Shown here piece by piece: positions 3,729 to 61,751 of a stretch of 64,000 nucleotides of DNA. Origin of the DNA: Chiloscyllium plagiosum. Taxonomy: Eukaryota. The DNA lies in NCBI RefSeq assembly GCF_004010195.1, contig NC_057729.1, positions 58,909,335 to 58,973,334 of the forward strand, given 5' to 3'. The first letter of the stretch is position 1; each line of letters starts with the position of its first letter. Below the pieces are notes generated by a model, which was not told the DNA's origin, did no database searches, and saw only the letters and a list, made by a program, of their open reading frames with translations. The translations under genes were made by a program, and so were the position numbers.

Positions 3729-3832
3729 ATGTCTGATGGCCAGGAGGGAAGCCCTTGTGCTGAGCCGCAAGGTGACAGAGAAAATGAGGAGCAGCAAAGT
3801 GAAGACCAGGATGTGAAGGAGCACAACACCAG
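3729..3832 (+). CDS. Src-like kinase, putative first coding exon (acidic unique N-terminus MSDGQEGSPCAEPQGDRENEEQQSEDQDVKEHNT)
   Basis: Acceptor TTTCTCCACTTCAG ends at 3704, ATG at 3729 with A at -3, donor AG|GTATGT at 3833. Phase 2 end matches the next exon. No homology support, so confidence is lower. Confidence 0.55.
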
Positions 3833-7132: not shown

Positions 7133-7213
7133 ATCAGAAAGCTTTAAGTCTCTGTTCAGGGCAGAGTCTCTGAGGGATCAAGGTACTGAGATCAAACCAC
7201 TGGAGGCGGAAAC
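7133..7213 (+). CDS. Src-like kinase exon: degenerate remnant of the second SH3 exon ((R)SESFKSLFRAESLRDQGTEIKPLEAE(T))
   Basis: Strong acceptor TTGTTCTGTTTTTCAG, donor AC|GTAGGT, 81 bp, phase 2-2. It ends LEAE-T directly before the SH2 WFFK, as in HCK SLETEEWFFK and LCK SLEPEPWFFK. Confidence 0.7.
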
Positions 7214-12837: not shown

Positions 12838-12941
12838 GTGGTTCTTCAAAGGAGTGAGTGGCAAAGAAGCAGAGAGAGTAATTCTCCAACCAGAAAACAA
12901 AGAGGGAACTTTCCTGATCAGAGAGAGCCAGTCAAAGAAAG
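12838..12941 (+). CDS. Src-like kinase exon, SH2 N-half (WFFKGVSGKEAERVILQPENKEGTFLIRESQSKK)
   Basis: AG/GT bounded, 104 bp, phase 2-1 as in Src-family genes; FLIRES signature. Confidence 0.95.
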
Positions 12942-15983: not shown

Positions 15984-16130
15984 GTTGCTATGCTTTACTG
16001 GTGAAGCATTGGGATCCCAAGCTGGATTTTAGAGTCATGTCCTACAAAGTATCCAACAGGCCCAGTGGCTATTACATCAATCCACGGGTCAAGTTCATCA
16101 GCCTATCAGAGCTAGTCAAGTATTATCACA
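15984..16130 (+). CDS. Src-like kinase exon, SH2 C-half (GCYALLVKHWDPKLDFRVMSYKVSNRPSGYYINPRVKFISLSELVKYYH)
   Basis: TAG acceptor, GTAAGT donor, 147 bp, phase 1-1; aligns with HCK [23 protein letters not shown]...FYISPRSTFSTLQELVDHY. Confidence 0.95.
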
Positions 16131-18920: not shown

Positions 18921-19070
18921 GAAATGCAAATGGTCTGTGCCAAAGGCTCGCGAGCCCCCCGCTCAAAAAGTCTCAAAGTATTTCAAAAACGGATGGTTTT
19001 GAAATTCCGAGGAAGTGCGTTCTTCTGCAAAGTAAACGAGAAGTTGGACATTTTGCAGAAGGCAGGATGA
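18921..19070 (+). CDS. Src-like kinase exon, SH2 end, linker and kinase subdomain I ((R)NANGLCQRLASPPLKKSQSISKTDGFEIPRKCVLLQSKREVGHFAEGRM)
   Basis: AG/GTAAGT, 150 bp, phase 1-1; aligns with HCK GNDGLCQKLSVPC...[26 protein letters not shown]. Confidence 0.92.
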   Translation, partial: EMQMVCAKGSRAPRSKSLKVFQKRMVLKFRGSAFFCKVNEKLDILQKAG

Positions 19071-24255: not shown

Positions 24256-24438
24256 GGTTGAATGGCAATAATGTCCGAGTGTCTGTGAAGATGCAGAGTG
24301 TGGAGGGGACTCCAAACCAAGCCTTCCTCAGGGAGGTCAGCATTCGTAAAGTTCTTCAGCATGGCCGGCTGGTCCAACTTCTGGCAGTGGTGACACAATC
24401 ACAGCCCATGCTCATTATCACCGAGTTCATGAGCCAAG
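24256..24438 (+). CDS. Src-like kinase exon, subdomains II-V ((R)LNGNNVRVSVKMQSVEGTPNQAFLREVSIRKVLQHGRLVQLLAVVTQSQPMLIITEFMSQ)
   Basis: AG/GT, 183 bp, phase 1-1; VSVK Lys, alphaC Glu and Thr gatekeeper present; gap-free alignment to the LYN sequence as I recall it. Confidence 0.95.
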
Positions 24439-29104: not shown

Positions 29105-29181
29105 GGAATCTAAACAGTTACTTGAGGAGTGACCTTGGTAGGCAGTTGGAATTGGTGCTGCTGATTGACTTTGCTTTACAG
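29105..29181 (+). CDS. Src-like kinase exon (GNLNSYLRSDLGRQLELVLLIDFALQ)
   Basis: 77 bp, phase 1-0, CAG|GTAAGT donor. Same size as the Src-family GSLLDFLK...LIDFSAQ exon; absent from the ORF track. Confidence 0.93.
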
Positions 29182-30384: not shown

Positions 30385-30538
30385 GTTTTGGATGGAATGC
30401 TTTATATGGAAGAGAATGCGTATGTGCATAGAGACCTGAGATCGGCAAACATTCTTCTCAATGGTAACCTGGAGTGCAAAATTGGAGATTTCAGCCTCAC
30501 TCAGAAACTGAAAGAACAGAGATACATCCTCTTGAAAG
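30385..30538 (+). CDS. Src-like kinase exon, catalytic and activation loops (VLDGMLYMEENAYVHRDLRSANILLNGNLECKIGDFSLTQKLKEQRYILLK)
   Basis: 154 bp, phase 0-1, AG/GTATGT; Src-type HRDLRSAN; DFS at 30487-30495. Confidence 0.96.
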
Positions 30539-31345: not shown

Positions 31346-32109
31346 TGAATCACTGTAGAAAGGCTGATTTAACCTCGCCACTTTCAGGGTGGGCAGAGGA
31401 GGCAAAATTCTGTTTTAAGTTGCACATTTATTTTGTTGGAAAACGTCCATGTACAGACAAGTAGACATCAGCAAACGTACTGTCAGGATGTGAGGTCAAC
31501 AGCAATCAAATAGTCAACTGCCATTGAGTAGCTACGGTGACAGCATTAATCTGACCCGATTCAAACATGGCTCAATGGTTTGTGTCTGCCCAAAATGAAG
31601 AAGACTTGCTGGGGAAAGGACAGAGCTTTTTGAGAAACTCCATTAGATCATGTGAAGGAGATATTGAGCTATCAGAGGGAGCAAATAAAACTCTCATCTC
31701 TCTGACCCTTCAAGCACCACATGCTATGCATGTGGTAAAATGTGCAAATCATGCATTGGCCATCCCAGAACCTCATCAAACAGGAGTGCAAGTCATCCTC
31801 AACCACGAGGGACTGCCCTAGAAGGCAAAGACTCTTCAAAAGTAATTAAATGGCTGTTATGTGATTGTAGATATGCAATTTCTCGCTTCATTTCACATGA
31901 CCCTCAAACTGCATTTTACACTGTCCCTCAGGAGGGGTGGGAAGGCAATAGTTTACCTAAAATAGTGGCCATTGACCTACCATCCAACACAAACTTTACC
32001 CATATGGCTATCCATCTCAGTCCATGCATCGTCATGCGGGCCATTTATAAAATCATAGAATCCTGCAAAGAAGGCCATTCGCTTCACCATACCTGTGTCA
32101 GCTCTATGA

Positions 32110-32310
<201 letters not shown>

Positions 32311-32656
32311 TGATTGTGAATGGTGAAGATGTTGAACTGCCAATTATAGACTGACAACATCCAACATTACTTCCAACCACCACTGACATAATCTTGGCCT
32401 TTAGACAAGTCACATTTCTGAAATATCTACAGTGACTGATGTGTGTTCATACAACACCAGCTGATGCAGCCTGAGTGTCAATTGGCAGCATTTACCAATT
32501 CACTGTGTAAAACTAAATGAGTTGGAGAAAAGAAATATTGAGAATGGAGTGGTATGAGATCATAGAATCATGAGCTGTGCATCCAGATAAATAACTTCCA
32601 TCAGAAAGCATTAATAATAAGGGTTAGGGCTAACTGGATTGCCTAACTTAGGAAGA

Positions 32657-32747
32657 GCTGAAAATGTGTTGCTGGAAAAGCGCAGCAGGTCCGGCAGCAT
32701 CCAAGGAACAGGAGAATCGACGTTTCGGGCATAAGCCCTTCTTCAGA
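32657..32747 (-). mobile_element. 91-bp Penelope-derived insert with intact minimal hammerhead core and 12-bp TSD
   Basis: AACTTAGGAAGA at 32645-32656 and 32748-32759; reverse complement reads CTGAAGA-A-GGGCTTATGCCC-GAAA-CGTC. Confidence 0.85.
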
Positions 32748-33153
32748 AACTTAGGAAGATCCCAGATTCTGGAGCTAATGCACAAAGATGCAAAAATTAT
32801 GTTCAAACTGTTGGTTAGACTTCATCTGGAGTGACAGACCCTGAGTCCATTGGATATTCAATGTCATGAAAGGTAAAAACAGAAAATGCTGGAGAAATTC
32901 AGCCAGGTCAGGCAGCATCTGAAGAGAGAGAAGCAGAGATGTTGTTTCAAGTCCCATGACCCGTCTTTAACTCTCTCCCAATTGCTGAAAGTAAGAATTC
33001 CAGGTGCAGCAGGCAGTGAAGAAGGCAAATGGTATGTTGGCCTTCATAGTGAGAGGATTCGAATACAGGAGGAGGAATATCTTGCTGCAATTGTAAAGAC
33101 TTTGGTGAGACCATGGAGTATTGTGTGTAATTTGGTCTCCTTATCTGAGGAAG

Positions 33154-33378
33154 CCACGATGTGGAGCTGCTGGTGTTGGACTAGAGTGGACAAAGTTAAA
33201 GATCACACAACACCAGGTTATAGTCCAACAGGTTTATTTGGAAGCACTAGCTTTCGGAGCGACGCTCCTTCGTCGGGTGGTCATCAGGCAACCACCTGAT
33301 GTAGGAGCAGCGCTCCCAAAGCTAGTGCTTCCAAATAAACCTGTTGGACTATAACCTGGTGTTGTGTGATCTTTAACT
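33154..33378. mobile_element. Palindromic Penelope-derived element with 13-bp TSD, inside a CR1 remnant
   Basis: Inverted arms ~33193-33282 and ~33292-33380; TTATCTGAGGAAG at 33141-33153 and 33379-33391. Confidence 0.85.
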
Positions 33379-34492
33379 TTATCTGAGGAAGGATATTCTG
33401 ACAACAGAAGGAGTGCAATGGAGACTGATCTACAGAAGGATTCCTGGGATGGTCGGACAGACGTATGAAGCGACACTGGATTGCTTTGGACCATATTCAC
33501 TTGAGTTTTGGAGAATGAGGGGGTTTCGTAGAAACCTATAAAATTCGAGCAGCAGTAGACAGGGTAAACACAGGATGAATGTTCTGATGATCAGGAGTCA
33601 AGAACCAAGGATCATAGTCTAAAAATACAGGTTAAGCCAGTTAGGACTGAGATGAGGAGGAATGTCTTCACCTCATGAGTTGGATGACCAGCTACAATCA
33701 TATTGAAGGTTGTTGCAGGCTCAAAGGGCTGTATGTTCCTATTTTCTATGTCTCTATGGAACTGAGCATGAGAACATGAATGACTGTGGTTCGGGTATAC
33801 AGGATGTAATTTGAGACTTTGCAGATGGCATGAGACATGGAAAAGTACAAAACAATGAAGAGGTAGCAGGCATTAGGAGGATACAGGCAGATTGGAGAAA
33901 CGGGCTGACACATGGGAATGGAATTTAACATAGCAAAGTATGAATCGGTATGTTTTGGTTGGAAGATCATGAATAGGCAATGTAAACTAAAGGGTGCTAT
34001 TTGATAGGATGTGCATGGGCTGGAAGCCCTGGGCTTTACGTCCAGAAATTGGGAAAGGTGAGAGAGTTGTGAGCATTTGGGATCCTTGATTTTATTAAAT
34101 AGAGAAACAAAATGCAGCTAATTTACAAACAGGAAATGCTAAAACCAGTCAGAGGGTCTGTGCTGAGAGTTCATGTACCTCACCACCACCCTCTCAAAGG
34201 CAACTAAGGACAGGCAGTAAATGCTGACCCAGCCAATGCACTTACATCCCCTCTGTGACTTTAATAAAGAAAAGGTCGAGGTCAGTGACATTTCATCAGA
34301 GACTTAAAACTCGGTGACTGAGTTTCAGTGACTGAGTTTGCGTCCATAAAAGACATTTTGGAACCAGATAGCCTTTACAACAGTGCAATGACTTCATGCT
34401 CACATTCACTGCCATCTGATTTTTATTGATGGATCTTTCTTTCTACTGGTTAACCTGTATTGGGCAATTCATTGCTGTCTCCTTGTTTTTAG

Positions 34493-34659
34493 GTCTAACC
34501 TTTGCACAAACTGTTCAGTTTTTGGAAAGTGGTCTTCGCATGCAACGCCCCCTGGGCTGCCCAGAGGAGCTGTATTATGTCATGTTGATGTGCTGGGAGG
34601 AGGAGCCCTGCAGCCGGCCATCATTTCAACTACTGCGTGACCTGCTGCAAAACCTCTGA
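34493..34659 (+). CDS. Src-like kinase last coding exon (GLTFAQTVQFLESGLRMQRPLGCPEELYYVMLMCWEEEPCSRPSFQLLRDLLQNL*)
   Basis: Pyrimidine tract plus AG at 34492, phase 1; CPEELY..M..CW...RPSF motif; TGA at 34657-34659. Confidence 0.95.
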
Positions 34660-34767
34660 CCCTTCCTTTGCTGTGCTAACTCTTTCAGTCCTTGTTTTAT
34701 CATCCAGAGTGTGTTGTTGTTCCCAGGACTGACTATATCTGATAAACCAAACCACAATGAATTATTG

Positions 34768-35082
34768 TGGGCAGCACAGTGGCTAAGTGGTTAGCACCGC
34801 TGCCTCACAGCGCCAGGGACCTGGGTTCAATTCCTGCCTTGGGCAACTGCCTGTGTGGAGTTTGCACATTCTCCCCGTGTCTGCGTGGGTTTCCTCCGGG
34901 TGCTCCGGTTTCCTCCCACAGTCCAAAAGATGTGCAGGTCAGGTGAATTGGCCATGCTAAACTGCCCGTAGTATTAGGTGGAGGGGAATGGGTCTGGTTG
35001 GGTTGCTCTTCAGAGGGTCGGTGTAGACTTGTTGGGCCGAAGGGCCATGTTCCCACACTTTAGGGAATCTAATCTAATCTAA
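34768..35082 (+). mobile_element. HE1 SINE just downstream of the kinase stop codon
   Basis: Full head, V-domain and (TCTAA)n tail. Confidence 0.92.
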
Positions 35083-41939: not shown

Positions 41940-42880
41940 ATCGGTAGTGGGCGGGGTCAGGCTCCTGTGGGGCGGGGCCAGTTACCGGTGAAAGAAAAAC
42001 GCAACCACTAGATGGGCGGGGCCTATCCGCGAGACGTCAGGTAAAGGGCGGACCAGTTGGTGGCGACGTCAGACGCAGACACTAAGGGGCGGATACGGTC
42101 CGGTGACGTCGGAAATTGGGCGGGAACGGTTGGCGTTAACGTCAGACCCACATCCTAAGGGGCAGGGTCTACCTCGATGACGTTGTTTACAGTCGGCTTG
42201 GGGGCGGAGACGGTCGACGTCACACGCAAACGATGGGGGCGGGGTTGCCTCCTCGCCGCCATGTTGTTGAGGCTGAGTGAGGAAACGAGCGGGAGCGGGA
42301 GAGCAGCAGGGCGTCCGCTCGCTTAAACCCTCAGGCCCACCCCTAGTTAATCCTTTAGATCCCGTGTCACCGGTAAGGGCATCGCTGACTCGGCTTCCTG
42401 CGGCCGTGCGGGGCCGGGAATGAGTTGTGTTGTCTGTCAGTAAATGCCGCTGTTTCTCTCCCTCTCTCTGTAACTCCGAGCTCGGGCCTTTCGGCGGACC
42501 GAGCAACTAGGCCTCCCGCGGGAGTGCGCCCGGGTAGGCCTCTCCGCCAGCCCCCCCCGCCACCTCCCTTCGGTCTCCCTCTGCTCACTGCTGGTTGGAT
42601 TATTACAGTGAATGGGTTTTAGTTGAATTGAGTCTGAATCTTCGGTGGCTTGTGTGAGGGCGATGCAGCGCTTTGTGCGTGTGCGGGGGGCGGGAGCGGG
42701 ACAAAGAGTGTGCATGCGCAGCAAGAGGGACCGTCGAAGGAATGCGGAGTTGGGGAGTGGGCGACGAGTCCTCCCAGAGCCCGGACCGGGGGAGAGATGT
42801 GGGTCTCTACCTTCCACACCCAGGGTCGAAGTGGGGGCAAGGGGGTAGTTGTGGGGAGGATTCTTCCTAGAGCTCGGGCA
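41940..42880 (+). promoter_or_regulatory. CpG-island promoter of RBM12 (probably shared with a copine gene)
   Basis: The only CpG-rich segment in the window. GC boxes GGGCGGGG at ~41948, 41969, 42014 and 42237; about 6 CRE-like ACGT sites at 42030-42222; YY1 motif GCCGCCATGTTG at ~42255-42266; NRF1-like TGCATGCGCA at ~42711; donor CG|GTAAGG at 42373. Confidence 0.85.
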
Positions 42881-45800
42881 CACAGCTCAAATCACTCAGT
42901 ACATACCTCTTGGGCTCAATTGTAATATTTAAAAGCAAGTGGTATTTCTGTCTAAAATCGAAAGGAGGATTTCAGAACCAACCACATACTGTTTAATCCT
43001 GAAGGCAAATTAAAACATTGGCCTTGTTTTTTCTAAACTGTTCAAGATCCAGATTTTGTCTCAAATATTCTGCAGGTATTTACTGGTTTCATTTTGTGGA
43101 TACTGCACGTTTTTAAAAGTTGTAAAGGATACTTACTCTCAAAGTGCAACCTCATGTAATGAATCCCGTCTGATGATCTGCATGTGTTGGTCCATGGCTT
43201 GCTGATCAGAATTTCTTTTTGCTAAATGGGTCTGTGTGGAACAAATTGGATTGTTTTTTTTAGAATCATAAAGTAAAAAGAATGAAGTTTGAGCAGAAGG
43301 AAAATATTCTTGAAACGGTAGGGTGTTTATGCGCATTAACCTTGTTCATGTCAGGCTGGTTGGACCTGTGATCTTTTGATTTTTTTAGTATTGATTTGTA
43401 TACTATTTGCATTTTTAACATTTTATTTTCTTTATTTAGGGCCTTGCTGTAAAATGGATGTCAGCCAGATCTGGTTTGTTTGTGTTGCTTGTTGTAAAAC
43501 CTTGTTAGATTGTGTAATTTGTCACATCTCTTGTCCCTGAAGCAGTTTTGACCAAGTGCTATTTAGTTGTGTCTAGTGTCTATTCTGATAGTGTTACTCA
43601 GTTGCATATTATGTTAAGCACAAATTAAATTTATTTATGAACACATTTGTAACCCTGTTCTTGTGCACATTCAATCTAATAATTGAGGCATTAGATTGAG
43701 GCATTAGGTTTTGGTACTTGCCAGGTTTTCTAACATGTGCTTGGTGCTTTTGTTAACTAAATGTTAATGCATAAAAGCTGTGATGGTTTGGCTTTTAGTT
43801 AGTGATATGAATCTAATGCATCATACTATAAATGCTGAAGTACGGTAGTGACTCTTTTTGTAAACATCATCTGAAACCCGTTCAAGTACAACACTCCTGA
43901 AAATTAGAACAGAGCTGACAGCATTTGCACTACTACAGAGTTTGTTTATTTTGAACTTGGGTGTATGATGTGGAAATATTTTGTGAAGATCATCCGTTGT
44001 TGCTGGCACAATTGTTTGTGATGTTCACCAAACAGGTATATCCCAGCCTAGAGACTGCAACTAGAGGATGAGCCTCTAATAATTTAGCTTTATTTTGTAG
44101 CCATGGTACTTGAGTGTTCATTTGGGATGTTAGTTAATTTTGAATCAACTTTGCCATTTTTCATTTGGTGTTGTTTTTTAATTGGCGTGGCCAAGTACAG
44201 TATCTTCCTTTTAATTCTGAACACTTAATGTTCTGTCTCCCAACATAAATATGCATAACCTCCAATGCTTTTAAATAACAATCGATTAGCATCTGGTAAA
44301 TTCTGGTTGGTGCATACCAACATGATTGGATACTTTTAATAAGCTCACTTTTGTCACTAAGTTAACTACCTAAAATCCTAAACTGTATATTGGCTGAAAT
44401 TTCAAATTGGAGTAATGAGGACTTTTAAACATTTTGTGGGGGGGAAAAAAATTGAGATGCCACTACTGAAAAGTAAAGTAAATTTCAGCGATCAAGAGTT
44501 TTAGAAATATTTTAAACTGAAAATATTAAAATTCCCTGATCGTAATTGTAGAAAAGATTAATTTTACACTGTTGCAAAAGCTCTTTTTAGAGATCCTAAT
44601 GTATCACTTTATTTACTCTACCAATTTTCTTGTGTCTACTTACTAACTCAGCCATGATGCTACTGAATGGTGGAGAAGGCTTGAAGGACCAAACAATTTG
44701 CTGTTCCTCTTTCTTAGCCCTTTTGGTTAAAGTTTCAAGGCACGAATTGACTTCTCTTGCTTCGATTGGATGACCATCGATTCAACAAGTCTGATGTCAA
44801 GATTGGCAGGGCAATTTGACTGACTCCTTTCTGAGACTGTGTATTCAACAACCACTGTCCCAACTGCCCACTAAGATTTTGCCACTTGCTGACCTACGTG
44901 GTTGAAATGTACTATCAGTTTAAAACCTCATGACAGCTTGATCTTGTTTTTTTTCTTATCTTGACTATCCTGAGAATCTTCAGATTTTTAGAAGTTTCAA
45001 TTTAAAAGGAAGTGTTCAAATCTTGTGTAACTTTATTCCCTCCTTCATTCCTTTCTCGTTCTCCCCATCTGTGTCTCATGCACACAGTTAAGTGAATTTG
45101 GAAAGTTTTCATACTAGTGGAGATCTGCTGAAATACAGTTGATCAGTCTCTGAAAATAGTATTAGATAAACATCTGAGCAAAAGGTACAGAGAGCAAAGC
45201 CATTGTTTAGAGGTGTTAGTTCCAAAGTGGAACTGGCGCAGGTATGCTGGGCTGAATGATGCCTTGTGCTGAAATTCCTATGCTGATAAGCACCAGGAGT
45301 TTGGAGACTTTAGTCTTGCATTGTGTGTTGATCTCTGAGGGCCTTAATGAAGTATGGTATGGAGTCAGGCTGTGTTATATTTTCCTTTTGCAGCTTTAGA
45401 AGCTATTTTAAATTATAAATTTTAAACGTGGTAAAACAGCCTAAAGCACAATCTTTTTATCTAAAGCACAGTTTTGTCTTAAGCATATCAATAGAATTAT
45501 CATCTTTTCACTAATGTTCAACATGCTGAGTAGACCAATCTCAATCAAATTTTTGGTGGTTATGAATCCAGAATTAACTCTTAAATTGAATTCACTGAAA
45601 TTTGAAAATGGGTGGGGCGTCTAACATGAAATTTGTTGAATATTTCTGCATTTTACGTTAAATACTGGTCTTCTGGATTCCAGTGTCAGTTTCAAAATTT
45701 AGCAAAGTCAACCAAAATATTGTGCTTTAGAACTAAGTATTAATTTGCAGGGCAAACAAGTTAGGTACGGTGAGGATGAGCGACATAATAGAAGACCTAA

Positions 45801-56400: not shown

Positions 56401-59246
56401 TTTTCATGAACCATGTTACTCTAAAAATTGACAAACCTAATGATATACCTGAACATTTACATTGTAAATCAAATGATTGTTAATAGCATACAATTTCTCC
56501 CAACCCTGGCCAGTGAATTTCAGAAATTTTGGAGTCAGATTGCAAGCATTTTTTTTTTGTTTTTAAGGTAAATTTATACAGGTGAAGATTTGTAGTTTAA
56601 AAATCTCTTAGCTTGTTAAACTGTGGAGTATTTGTGGAAGTTTCTCTTGGTATGGTAACAAATTGCAAATAGATTGCTTGTATTAGATACTGGTCAATGA
56701 TGTTTCTAAATAGGTAATGGTCATACATTGTAGAAAGCCTGAACTTTTCTTTGGTAGAATACATCGTCCCTCACCTCGTTGCTGTGGACAATGTCACAAG
56801 TCTTCTAATTTAAAATCTTCATGAACATAATATAGTTATACAACAGTTATTAAATCCAAAGTTATCTGTCATCTACCAAATTCAAATGCCAAACCTCATT
56901 GCTTCAAATTAGGAAGTGTGTATTGTTCCAAATTGTTGTAGCTCAGTGTGAAATAGCTGAACCATACAGACCAGTGAAGTCCCAGAATTAATCCCTATTC
57001 TTCAGAGCTTATCTTAATGAGTGCAATAGAAGGGTGCTACTCTTGGGATAGTAAGCAGCAGTTCTTGTAATAGCAAGAACTTGGCTGTTGTCCATTAATC
57101 TCTGGAGGTTGTGTGCATTAGGCCATAGTGGGTTTGTGTTTGGCTGTGTCAGCAAGGTTTGCTAACTTTTCTGACCTCTCTGGTCTAGAATTATGCTAGT
57201 ATGGCTACTTGAGTAAGAAAAAGGAAGGTCCCAGGCATCCATGGAGTTGTACTGCATTGAAGATTGAACTTCGGAAAAATCTTTTCACAAGTTTCCATGA
57301 AAAGAATCCAGGGAATTCTCTTTTGCTGAGTAGCCTCCTATTTCCTGTGTTGCTTCCCCCCCTCAGTTGGCTATAGAGACTTGATTATTGCCTTGAATTC
57401 ATAGTCTCCCTTTATATTTCGCTAGGGGAGATTTGATGGTTAATGTTGCATAACATGGAAAGTTGAGGAATTCTGAAATGTTCAGCTTGAACTGATTCCA
57501 CAAGATGTGGTCTTACGTGGTGACATTCATGTACACGCCAACAGGCTGATTACTTTGCGTATTGCAGACATTGATTTGTCATCCCGTTTATTCTTTCTGC
57601 AGTCTGTAAAGTTGGTTTAAATTGGTTGACAACAGGATTGGCTGGTGTCCTCAGCTGCTTAAGGGAAACGCCACTGTTTTGGTTACAGGTAAGATTCTCT
57701 TCTGTACAGGTTGTTTTAGATATAGAATTTTAAAATTGATGCAGGCTCCAACTTAGTTGCATTAAAATTTTGAGCTGAAACATTGAGATTTACAATTTTA
57801 ATTGGTATTTAGTAAAAGGGCATTTACCTTGAGGTTTGGTAGATTAACATGATTTAAATATGTCAGACTCCAGTTTATTGGCTATTTTGTTTGAAGATTT
57901 TTTAAAAATTCAGACACATGACTCTGTTTTCAGCTGTAAATTCTGTCTGCAGTGCTCTTTATTGGCATTGAATTTTAATGTTTGATCTGCAACATTGTTA
58001 TTCAGAAGTGTTAAGTTTGCAAAGCCATGTGTCCTATGTTCAAAATTTGCAGAATTGGCTATTAGCATGGAATGAGCACAGAAACAAACCCAGAAGAGTT
58101 GTGTATCAACTAAACTTGAGTTTGCTTACTGTAGTAGTCTGACTGTTGCAAATTCTGGTATGCTTTACAAGCTGAGATAGATTTGAAATCTGAATTGTAG
58201 TTTACTTGTTTTTGCATTCACATTCAATATTGTAAATTGCAATGTATCTGTAAGAAGGTTTGACATTCAAAGAAACATATGCCAGAAATGTCAGATTTGA
58301 TTTGCATGCTAAAAACACTGGCTAGACCGCATCATCTTTCCACTCTGACTTGTCCTTCTGCTTGTTGAACAATCAGTATTGGACAAGCATAGCTTCACTC
58401 CACTTAATAGTACTGATTTTCTGAACACTTGTCTTTGAACAGCACTACAAAACCCTTCCCATGCAGCTGTCTAAGACTGAACTAGACCATTCCTCTCCCC
58501 ATCTGACTGCCTGCCTGCTTCCACAACCTGCATCAGATATCAGCTGGAAACTCCATTTGTGCCTTTGTTACCTCTAGACATGACTGTTGCTCCCCAACTG
58601 TAAATCATGACCCCTGTGCTTGCTGACTTATGTTGAATCTGGGTCTGGCAATAACTCAATTTTAAAAATTCTTCACCATGTCAAATTGCTTTGATACCAC
58701 CACCTCCTACATGTAATTAATCCATCACTCACTGACCCCTCTAATTCAGGTTTCTTACTGTCCCATCTTTGGTAGCTGACTGTTCAGCTTCTAGATTCTG
58801 TAGTCTGCATGTTCCTTCCTGAGCAAAGCCTCTTTCATTTCTCACTCTTTAAAATCTAGTAATTGACCAACCAAGCTTTTGGTTATCTGTCCTAATGTCT
58901 CCTTATGTGGCTTAGTGATGTATTTTCTTTGGTAAAGCTCGTATTGGTCTGTTATTATTTTGTAATAAATGCAATTTGTAGTGGTAAAAGGAAGTATCTT
59001 ACTGTTGTGGTTTCTTAATTGCTGAGCAATTAGTATTATGCAAGTTGGACTTATTCATGCAATGTTGATTTAAAATCCTGTCTTAAAACTGGTACAATAT
59101 CTGCAAGAAGTTGGTTTTCCTGTGATGGCTTATATTGTATGCTAAGTACATTTTTACATTTCTGGTTAGGCTGGTTTTGTTCTAACAAGTCTGACGTAGT
59201 TCGTGCCTTTCTCGTCTGCAGGTGGTTGTTATTGATTGTGCTCAGC

Positions 59247-61751
59247 ATGGCCGTGGTCATCCGCTTGCAGGGTCTCCCCATTGTGGCGGGGACCATGGAT
59301 ATCCGCCACTTCTTCTCTGGATTAACCATTCCTGATGGTGGTGTGCATATTGTAGGTGGTGAACTTGGTGAGGCTTTCATCGTTTTCTCCACAGATGAAG
59401 ATGCACGGCTTGGTATGATGCGTGGTGGGGGTACAATTAAAGGATCCAAAGTATCACTCCTACTCAGTAGTAAAACTGAAATGCAAAATATGATTGAGCT
59501 GAGTCGTAGGCGTTTTGAAACTGGTAATGTGGATATGCCACCAGTCGGCTCAAGTAGACCAGGTCCAACTAGTAATACTAGTATTACTGCAAGGGGTAAT
59601 TTACCTACAACTATGCCTAACTTAAACACTCCCACTATGGTCACTACAACCTCCTCGTTACATGAGAGCGTAGGGAATAAAAATGTGCCCACCTTTTCTG
59701 CTGCCAGCATGGGAAGTACACCCTCGAGCCTCAATCCCACTTTTAGCAGCCCTGGGTTTACCATGGGTTCAACTATAGCCAGCACTATGCCACCACTGAA
59801 TACAATAAACTCCGTACCACCTTTACCACCACTTCCTCCTTTACCTACAATGCCATCACTGCCACCTATGCCTTCAATTCCTCCAATTGGTATCCTGCCA
59901 CCAGTGCCTCCCCTTCCTCCTATAGCACCTCTCGCTCCAATTCCTCCCATGCCACCTATACCTCCAATACCAAGCTTACCACCCATGCCCATCAATGCAG
60001 GTAGTACTCTTCCTCTAGGAAGCTCTGGGCCCAGTGGAATGAATGGTTCTGGGTCTACATTAGGCATCAGTAATAGTGTAAGTTCCATGTACATGGGTCC
60101 TCTAGGTTCATTAAATCCACTGCACCCCATGAATTCCCATAGTTCAATTAACAAAGGGCCACCACCAATTAAGTCTGATGATGTGTATGCCCATATCTAT
60201 GGGATGCCATATACTGCGATGGAATCAGATGTAAGGGAATTTTTTCATGGACTCCGAATTGAAGCAGTGCACATGATGAAAGATCATCCAGGTCGCAATA
60301 GCAGAGATGCAATGGTGAAGTTTTATAGTTCCTCGGATACATTTGAGGCTCTGAAGCGACATGGAAAAATGATGATGGGCCAGAGATTTGCTAATGTATT
60401 CCCTGCAACAGAGAGGCAGTGGCTCAGTACTACTGTTGGCTTTAGTACACCCAAAAGCATGGGCCCCCCACCTTCCATTGGGCATTATGGACAGAGCCTA
60501 CCTCCATTTCATACATCTCGGTCTGAATCTCCAAGCAAACGTGAACGATCACGATCGCGCTCCCCTCATGATAAGGAGTTCTGCGTTTATTTGAAAGGCT
60601 TGCCATATGAGGCTGAAAATAAGCACATCATGGAATTCTTCAATAAACTGGAACTCATAGAGGATAGCATCTACATAGTATATGGACCAAGTGGAAGAGC
60701 AACAGGTGAAGGCTTTGTAGAATTTAAAACTCACACTGATTACCAGGCAGCTTTATGTCGCCACAAACAGTACATGGGCAGTCGCTTCATCCAGGTTCAT
60801 CCAATTACTAAAAAAGCGATGTTGGAGAAGCTAGAAAATATTCAGAAGCGAGCACACAACTTTGTGCAAAATGAGCAGAAGAGAGAAGTAACAGTGAAAA
60901 CTGAGGAAGTGTCTAGTTCACCAAAAATATGTGGTCATATATGGAATATCCCTTATAATGTAACCAAAAGCGATGTGTTCCAGTTTTTGGAAGGTATTGG
61001 ACTAGCAGAAAATGGTGTCCAGATTCTTGTTGACTCTAATGGCCAAGGGCTTGGGCAGGCCCTTGTACAGTTTCTAAATGAAGAGGAGGCACAGAAGGCT
61101 GAGCGACTGCATCGCAAGAAGCTAAATGGACGTAATGCATTTCTTCAACTGATTACTCTTGAACAAAAGCAAGAAATGGAAACAAATCCACCATTTCAAA
61201 CCAAGAGCCAGAAGAATCCAAACCAAGGGAGCCTTGATCCTCCTTTCCTCCCCTGTGTTGGAGGTGACAGCATTTTCTCACCAAGTGTCAGTTCAAGCAA
61301 TCTTAATGGCCCTGTACCACCATTCAACCCTGTTAGTAGCTTTAGTGGATCGACTAACATGTTTGGACCAGGGCCGAGTCCTGGATCAGGGGTCAGTGTT
61401 AGTATCGGTGATGGCCCAACAGGAGGGCCTGTATTTGGAAGCAGCAGTGTCACTAGTTTTCCAGGAGCAGGTGTTGAGCCAAGGGTTGCAAGTGGTCCTT
61501 TAACTACCAAAAGCCCAACAGTGGTTAAAGTGCAAAATTTGCCCTTCAAAGTATCTGTGGATGAAATTTTGGATTTCTTTTATGGCTATCGTGTGATTCC
61601 CGACTCTGTGTGCTTGCAATTCAACGAGCAAGGCATGCCTACAGGTGAAGCAATGGTTGCTTTTGAATCCTGCAATGAAGCAATGTCAGCTGTCGTTGAC
61701 CTGAGTGATAGACCAATGGGATCCAGGAAAGTGAAACTTGTCTTGGGATAA
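59247..61751 (+). CDS. RBM12: RNA-binding protein 12, 834 aa, single coding exon, multiple (q)RRMs plus a Pro-rich region
   Basis: N-terminus MAVVIRLQGLPIVAGTMDIRHFFSGLTIPDGGVHIVGGELGEAFIVF and C-terminus RPMGSRKVKLVLG match RBM12. The acceptor CTTTCTCGTCTGCAG ends at 59221, so the true start is ATG 59247 rather than 59139. Confidence 0.97.
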   Translation: MAVVIRLQGLPIVAGTMDIRHFFSGLTIPDGGVHIVGGELGEAFIVFSTDEDARLGMMRGGGTIKGSKVSLLLSSKTEMQNMIELSRRRFETGNVDMPPVGSSRPGPTSNTSITARGNLPTTMPNLNTPTMVTTTSSLHESVGNKNVPTFSAASMGSTPSSLNPTFSSPGFTMGSTIASTMPPLNTINSVPPLPPLPPLPTMPSLPPMPSIPPIGILPPVPPLPPIAPLAPIPPMPPIPPIPSLPPMPINAGSTLPLGSSGPSGMNGSGSTLGISNSVSSMYMGPLGSLNPLHPMNSHSSINKGPPPIKSDDVYAHIYGMPYTAMESDVREFFHGLRIEAVHMMKDHPGRNSRDAMVKFYSSSDTFEALKRHGKMMMGQRFANVFPATERQWLSTTVGFSTPKSMGPPPSIGHYGQSLPPFHTSRSESPSKRERSRSRSPHDKEFCVYLKGLPYEAENKHIMEFFNKLELIEDSIYIVYGPSGRATGEGFVEFKTHTDYQAALCRHKQYMGSRFIQVHPITKKAMLEKLENIQKRAHNFVQNEQKREVTVKTEEVSSSPKICGHIWNIPYNVTKSDVFQFLEGIGLAENGVQILVDSNGQGLGQALVQFLNEEEAQKAERLHRKKLNGRNAFLQLITLEQKQEMETNPPFQTKSQKNPNQGSLDPPFLPCVGGDSIFSPSVSSSNLNGPVPPFNPVSSFSGSTNMFGPGPSPGSGVSVSIGDGPTGGPVFGSSSVTSFPGAGVEPRVASGPLTTKSPTVVKVQNLPFKVSVDEILDFFYGYRVIPDSVCLQFNEQGMPTGEAMVAFESCNEAMSAVVDLSDRPMGSRKVKLVLG

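Follow-up and report, generated by a model that had tools for sequence, protein, structure and literature searches.

Few switches in animal signalling are as well conserved as the C-terminal tail phosphorylated by CSK, whose inhibitory tyrosine v-Src lacks. Src-family-like modules also act as non-catalytic adaptors in SLA and SLA2, which keep myristoylation and the SH3 domain and have no kinase domain. In humans, losing the tail from HCK, FGR or LYN leads to disease according to the available part of PMC13167823, where the HCK variants Y515X/Y522F are described as having lost the inhibitory tail tyrosine. SRMS also lacks a C-terminal tyrosine and a myristoylation site, as described in the available part of PMC7352994, and keeps an SH3 domain and an active kinase in a family with another exon structure. 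The gene reported here, from the shark Chiloscyllium plagiosum, shares the missing tail tyrosine with v-Src, the HCK variants and SRMS, and with SRMS also the missing myristoylation site. v-Src and the HCK variants are activated, with the membrane anchor, the SH3 domain and the catalytic domain all intact; here the tail loss has become fixed throughout a clade of sharks and a chimaera, together with decay of the catalytic domain. No description of the gene was found in the literature searched, which was covered at the level of titles and abstracts and left most subscription journals outside its scope.

The gene lies in a window of 64,000 nucleotides (the whole stretch of DNA analysed; contig NC_057729.1, positions 58,909,335 to 58,973,334), and coordinates below are those of the window unless given in Mb. 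It consists of 10 exons on the plus strand between 3729 and 34659, whose 1299 nt contain one stop and translate exactly to the 432-residue isoform X1 (record P0003), with AG acceptors at exons 2-10 and GT donors at exons 1-9. The last exon is 100 % identical to three C. plagiosum records named tyrosine-protein kinase HCK-like. Pfam identified an SH2 domain (PF00017, E 4.5e-21) and a tyrosine kinase domain, and the AlphaFold model, which is uninformative on activity and domain arrangement, has ordinary SH2 and kinase folds (pLDDT 74, below 50 in the linker), its kinase domain matching those of LCK and HCK with TM scores of 0.90-0.92. Many database isoforms from several sharks (P0001, P0002, P0005, P0014-P0020 and P0022) omit phase-symmetric exons, either the second half of the SH2, the linker and Gly-loop, or the N-lobe; if this skipping is real, much of the mRNA of the gene encodes non-catalytic forms.

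The coding part of exon 10 (34493-34659, plus strand) ends LLQNL-TGA and lacks the inhibitory tyrosine tail. Frame 1 of 34501-34900 reads through to CWEEEPCSRPSFQLLRDLLQNL, is closed by the TGA at 34657-34659, and beyond it reads PFLCCANSFSPCF. The exon is 12 codons shorter than the last exon of HCK, and in an alignment of the two from the same genome the 55 coding codons show 52 % DNA identity and the 39 nt opposite the tail 21 %. Local alignment of the HCK tail DNA with the 114 nt from the stop onward gave a score equalled by 882 of 1000 shuffles, so there is no tail remnant past the stop. Four tail-like patterns had no match on the plus strand from the stop to position 59000, and in the 109 kb downstream such patterns gave six short partial matches, all past the gene taken below to be RBM12 and none of them ATExQY-like. 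An earlier note on this DNA had claimed that the inhibitory tail is absent and that no ATExQYQ-like remnant follows the stop, and both claims are borne out, with the frame stopping 12 residues short of HCK. Since there is no tail tyrosine, the CSK/SH2 clamp cannot form, and the protein is predicted to be CSK-independent, as had been proposed.

Members of the same clade were found in 13 shark species (two of Chiloscyllium, two of Scyliorhinus, and one each of Hemiscyllium, Stegostoma, Rhincodon, Carcharodon, Cetorhinus, Heterodontus, Mustelus, Pristiophorus and Heptranchias) and in the chimaera Callorhinchus milii, with open frames in all 14 species. The tail-less column is the end of 30 of the 34 protein models of this clade, representing 12 of the 13 sharks and the chimaera (record P0122), and all 93 of 93 canonical SrcB matches carry a tyrosine within their last 8 residues. 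The four other models comprise one N-terminal fragment and three that lack exon 10, including the sole Rhincodon model, which after exon 9 has an unrelated, tyrosine-containing end without the C-terminal kinase helices and looks like a faulty model. Some 200 kb upstream of the C. plagiosum gene, beyond an EEF1A gene, is a stretch (L030:3498-3572) that resembles the N-terminus of the Rhincodon model (69 % over 26 aa); that model is possibly a read-through or a chimera. Sharks and chimaeras separated about 400 million years ago. Because the end column is common to sharks and Callorhinchus, tail loss predates this split, and the suggestion that the loss is old has stood up to the proposed comparison of stop positions in other sharks, to which Callorhinchus (the elephant shark) adds the same column. 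No ray or bony-vertebrate member was among the matches listed in protein searches of a collection in which ray HCK, LYN and BLK are present, and a 50 %-representative search gave no clade member beyond P0007, P0026 and P0027 among its best 150 matches; absence of the gene from rays and bony vertebrates is thereby weakly indicated.

Assembled contigs from RNA runs X1 and X3 (two samples of one study, library type not on record) are spliced, with a joint from 32281 to 34493 (GT..AG), and then continue unbroken through the stop to 34775, so that the start of the 3' UTR (34660-34775, plus strand) lies within the same contigs as exon 10. The mapping covered 32000-34775, at contig depths of 17 in X1 and 7.6 in X3, and exons 9 and 10 were covered and unique intron sequence was not. 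An alternative terminal exon, which the earlier note had wished to see excluded from RNA, does not occur in these contigs, a form of data that drops rare variants. Sampling of the raw single-cell runs X5 (2 %) and X6 (6 %) yielded no exon reads, a depth too thin to test expression. A published row for LOC122560162 (“HCK-like isoform X1”), a marker of HSC and myeloid cells in the available part of the supplement of PMC11372145, was considered as a sign of myeloid expression and set aside, because the tailed HCK of C. plagiosum is also named HCK-like and because the neighbouring identifiers, TCEA-like and MAPRE1-like at 33.8 and 36.2 Mb, flank the tailed HCK (34.7 Mb), to which the row most likely belongs. 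As both genes carry the name “HCK-like” in the database, one is readily mistaken for the other in tables of expression.

Eight Src-family last exons with a tail tyrosine were found in the same genome, one of which matches exactly the end of a record named HCK, and this tailed HCK lies about 24 Mb from the tail-less gene on the same contig; the tail-less gene is an extra gene and not a damaged HCK. Its best sequence match among solved structures is HCK (358 bits, versus 323 for SRC; 42 % identity to HCK), and exon 4, the second half of the SH2, is single-copy in the genome with the HCK exon as the best other match. Exon sizes of 104, 147, 150, 183, 77, 154 and 132 nt compare with 104, 150, about 151, 183, about 73 (a rough cut), 154 and 132 in HCK of the same genome, four of them (104, 183, 154 and 132) being equal, and the junctions fall at HCK/SRC positions. 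In a tree of 30 rows over SH2 and kinase domains, which replaced an earlier one with a truncated chimaera row and a single outgroup, the clade was supported at 100/100, SrcB at 95/94, and HCK, LYN and the clade together at 97/90, the stem of the clade being long (1.3) and the tool warning of long branches. Grouping with PTK6/SRMS was rejected by the AU test (p = 0.023), nesting within chondrichthyan HCK (p 0.31) and a sister position to LYN (p 0.46) were both accepted with neither preferred, and a sister position to all HCK had a support of 39/0. The likeness to HCK/LYN, that is to SrcB, thus lies in the structure match, the four equal exon sizes, the tree position and the Src-type catalytic loop, and descent is from HCK/LYN and not from SRMS, through a duplication that, from these sequences, could predate or postdate the split of bony and cartilaginous vertebrates. 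The comparison with SRMS made in the earlier note holds for the absent tail tyrosine, and the resemblance is convergent, exon positions and tree placing the gene with HCK/LYN. Paths within the clade are about ten times longer than those of HCK. Between shark and chimaera orthologs identity is 34 % in the N-lobe, 37 % in the linker, 63 % in the SH2 and 57-70 % in the C-lobe, compared with 89-100 % in every region for HCK, and among sharks it is 82-88 % in the SH2 and C-lobe.

Despite its SrcB descent the protein is without three features that define canonical Src kinases: compared with HCK/LYN it lacks Gly2, the tail and, in sharks, a detectable SH3, as well as GxM and GxKF, has W260 changed to F, and has a degenerate Gly-loop, spines, DFG and P+1 site. 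The losses of the myristoylation site and the SH3 had gone unremarked in the earlier note. Exon 1 (3729-3832, plus strand) encodes an acidic N-terminus, MSDG..., without the Gly2 myristoylation site, which is absent from 33 of 34 clade models (one of them 5'-partial), the exception being Pristiophorus isoform P0126. Directly 5' of the ATG the reading frame differs between the two Chiloscyllium species, so this stretch is likely non-coding. Exon 2 (7133-7213, plus strand) encodes an acidic spacer ending PLEAE at the place expected for the SH3. Its homologue in the Callorhinchus ortholog is the spacer that links SH3 to SH2; that ortholog keeps the SH3 and has about 70 acidic residues before the SH2. 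At residues ~75-145 of the Callorhinchus record (P0122) this spacer is tandemly duplicated, and sharks have one copy (7133-7213). Pfam found no SH3 in the 5 models scanned, and an SH3 profile that detects the two SH3 exons of HCK with E values of 1e-13 to 5e-15 gave nothing better than E 1.8 over the window and 200 kb upstream. In the relevant span 7193 of 82837 bases (~9 %) are N, and some of these runs are large enough to conceal an exon. With the chimaera SH3 as query, the whole genome yielded no match near the locus.

The SH2 domain is divided between exon 3 (12838-12941, plus strand), where Arg alphaA2 is replaced by Gly and the Arg betaB5 and Ser betaB7 of FLIRES are kept, and exon 4 (15984-16130, plus strand), where His betaD4 is replaced by Ser and Lys betaD6 is kept. 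Across the clade, Arg betaB5 is kept in 15 of 15 rows and Arg alphaA2 lost in 15 of 15, with a basic residue kept at betaD6. In the available part of PMC7530234, betaB5 is given as the main phosphotyrosine contact and alphaA2 or betaD6 as alternative helpers, and since betaB5 and a basic betaD6 remain, the SH2 likely binds phosphotyrosine, as far as these residues predict. An SH2 left permanently free, as the earlier note had put it, is upheld with respect to the tail; the pocket itself has changed, Arg alphaA2 being gone from every ortholog and, in this lineage, His betaD4 as well. Exon 5 (18921-19070, plus strand) encodes the SH2-kinase linker, in which both prolines of the HCK motif KPQKPW are gone and W260 is F, and the start of the kinase domain, with EVGHFA for GAGQFG in the Gly-rich loop and Gly for Val in beta2. 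The linker prolines, W260, GxM and GxKF are lost clade-wide, and GxM, GxKF and the linker motifs are tied to the Src-like inactive state in the available part of PMC8662651.

In the N-lobe, exon 6 (24256-24438, plus strand) has VSVK, in which the Lys is kept and the Ala is Ser, keeps the alphaC Glu, and has lost GxM and changed the R-spine Met to Arg. Exon 7 (29105-29181, plus strand) extends from the hinge to alphaE, and exon 8 (30385-30538, plus strand) has an intact HRDLRSAN catalytic loop, DFS for DFG, and the activation-loop tyrosine. Exon 9 (32150-32281, plus strand) has DEKVAVKW for GAKFPIKW, by which GxKF and the P+1 Pro are lost, followed by APE and alphaF. No shark row covering these sites has lost the beta3 Lys, the HRD Asp or the DFG Asp; sharks also keep the alphaC Glu, the catalytic-loop Arg and Asn and APE, and C. 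plagiosum keeps the second Gly of the Gly-loop. The HRD Arg is Cys in Heptranchias, and the activation-loop tyrosine is found in all clade rows except Pristiophorus. Three changes are invariant in the clade at columns near-invariant in SrcB, namely R-spine M to R, DFG G to S and P+1 P to A (10 clade versus 94 SrcB rows), and the clade also has G or A for the beta2 Val and S, L or F for the beta3 Ala, both of the C-spine, and E or D for the first Gly of the Gly-loop. Deep mutagenesis of Src, in the available part of bioRxiv 10.1101/2024.04.26.591297, places inactivating mutations at M317, V284 and A296, named there as positions and without the particular substitutions seen here, and in tyrosine kinases the APE8 Pro contacts the substrate tyrosine (PMC12934671, available part). 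The Callorhinchus ortholog has beta3 K changed to R and DFG changed to GLS, and judged by the standard three-residue rule it is a pseudokinase, the only one by that rule, all three residues being kept in the C. plagiosum protein. The available part of PMC4718504 warns against predicting kinase activity from sequence.

Taken together, these features suggest that the tail-less protein is probably a low-activity or dead cytosolic adaptor or scaffold built on its SH2 domain. A copy of an HCK/LYN-type gene would have lost the tail, the myristoylation site and the linker, GxM and GxKF contacts before the shark-chimaera split, and next, in sharks, the SH3, while the N-lobe drifted and the SH2 and C-lobe stayed under stronger constraint. 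The off-switch would have been dispensable because catalysis was weak or absent. Phosphotyrosine sites would be bound through Arg betaB5 and Lys betaD6 with no need for release of a tail, the C-lobe and activation-loop tyrosine might be offered as a docking surface or substrate, and the protein may compete with or tune HCK/LYN signalling. Against the scaffold reading stand the classic catalytic residues kept in sharks and the predicted kinase domain, which folds normally. The fuller proposal, put forward tentatively and falling a little short of an even chance, is that the ninth Src-family gene of cartilaginous fishes is a pseudokinase that shed its autoinhibition stepwise (tail and anchor, later the SH3 in sharks). 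Loss of K and D would have killed it in the chimaera, changes at the spines and the P+1 site would have silenced it in sharks, and it would serve as a permanently open SH2 scaffold, or a decoy, by which HCK/LYN signalling is tuned.

As the three classic residues persist in sharks, two readings as a kinase remain for the shark proteins. A constitutively active, CSK-independent, v-Src-like kinase, controlled by expression, splicing and location and perhaps with altered substrates, would fit the retention of K, E, the HRD Asp, N and the DFG Asp and, mostly, of the activation-loop tyrosine, and the motifs that have gone (tail, SH3, linker, GxM and GxKF) characterise the closed Src-like state (PMC8662651, available part); in human HCK and FGR, loss of the tail tyrosine is activating (PMC13167823, available part). 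The earlier note had compared the protein to v-Src, with an unleashed kinase implied, and here the sequence speaks against it: the C-spine, R-spine, Gly-loop, DFG Gly and P+1 site are all substituted, there is no membrane anchor, and the chimaera ortholog is tail-less and also without the beta3 Lys and DFG Asp, so that, over the clade as a whole, catalysis and the loss of the tail are not linked. We consider this reading unlikely. It is quite unlikely that the protein is a weak kinase turned on by SH2 engagement or by activation-loop phosphorylation by another kinase, in the manner of Csk, Fes or SRMS. Its SH2-kinase architecture without a tail would suit such control, SRMS depends on its SH2 to autophosphorylate and shows low activity in vitro (PMC7352994, available part), and the ESM Atlas feature neighbours are CSK- and Fer-like SH2-kinases, a likeness of architecture only; however, the linker and N-lobe, through which coupling would have to pass, are the least conserved regions, and the reading cannot apply to the chimaera copy.

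Tree paths about ten times those of HCK, isoforms that skip SH2, linker or N-lobe exons, and the lack of a ray member among the matches listed would be expected of a decaying duplicate without protein function, but this is very improbable, as the frame is open and ends at the same point in 13 species on both sides of the shark-chimaera split, sharks are 82-88 % identical to one another in the SH2 and C-lobe, and the contigs are spliced; open frames in 14 species together with those contigs indicate a maintained gene. That a tyrosine tail is added through a minor alternative last exon is barely plausible: the different, tyrosine-containing end of the Rhincodon model after exon 9 hints at it, contigs would drop rare variants and the two raw-read runs had no exon coverage, yet both contigs show a single splice joint and unbroken read-through, and there is no tail motif downstream.

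The preferred reading, that of an SH2 adaptor or scaffold, may be set beside SLA and SLA2; the search with the SH2 exon returned only Src-family kinase loci. Another likeness is to ROR1 and ROR2, which keep the catalytic residues, have an altered Gly-loop, and are without detectable activity in the available part of PMC4718504; they are receptors of another family, whereas the tail-less protein is cytoplasmic, carries an SH2, is of SrcB descent, and is inactive by prediction. A gene that has been without the switch since before the shark-chimaera split shows which changes accompany its loss, here in the anchor, the SH3, the linker and parts of the active site, and the copies in sharks and the chimaera offer a natural series, with and without SH3 and with and without catalytic residues, for testing the change from kinase to scaffold. 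The gene is hidden in databases under the names HCK-like, Lyn-like and Yes-like and may mislead shark immunology.

The flanks of the gene were described from Pfam searches of 150 of 1062 candidate ORFs, and the list of neighbours is correspondingly incomplete. Upstream, the nearest neighbour found is an EEF1A gene on the minus strand (58.81-58.84 Mb), whose start is about 69 kb from the ATG and which, by its residues, we take to be EEF1A2-like; human EEF1A2 adjoins PTK6/SRMS. The SRMS/PTK6 orthology that this neighbour suggests was ruled out by intron positions, tree and AU test, and the PPDPF family gave no mapping to this contig. PTK6-like and SRMS-like genes lie in tandem at 32.40-32.48 Mb on the same contig, and both have last exons with tyrosines near the C-terminus, the SRMS-like gene ending YAAYYYKN, unlike textbook SRMS. 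They have other intron positions than the tail-less gene, and the motif HRDLAARN. These names, that of an FRK-like gene and those of the Src-family genes other than HCK in this genome are our presumptive assignments from motifs and tandem order. Downstream, a long frame in one exon (59034-61748, plus strand), which has repeats of the RRM type and a segment rich in proline, is presumably RBM12, judged from its sequence, and copine and C2 exons identified by Pfam beyond the window fit an RBM12/CPNE1 arrangement. A GC-rich segment at 42000-42900 with many overlapping open frames is likely the RBM12/copine promoter island.
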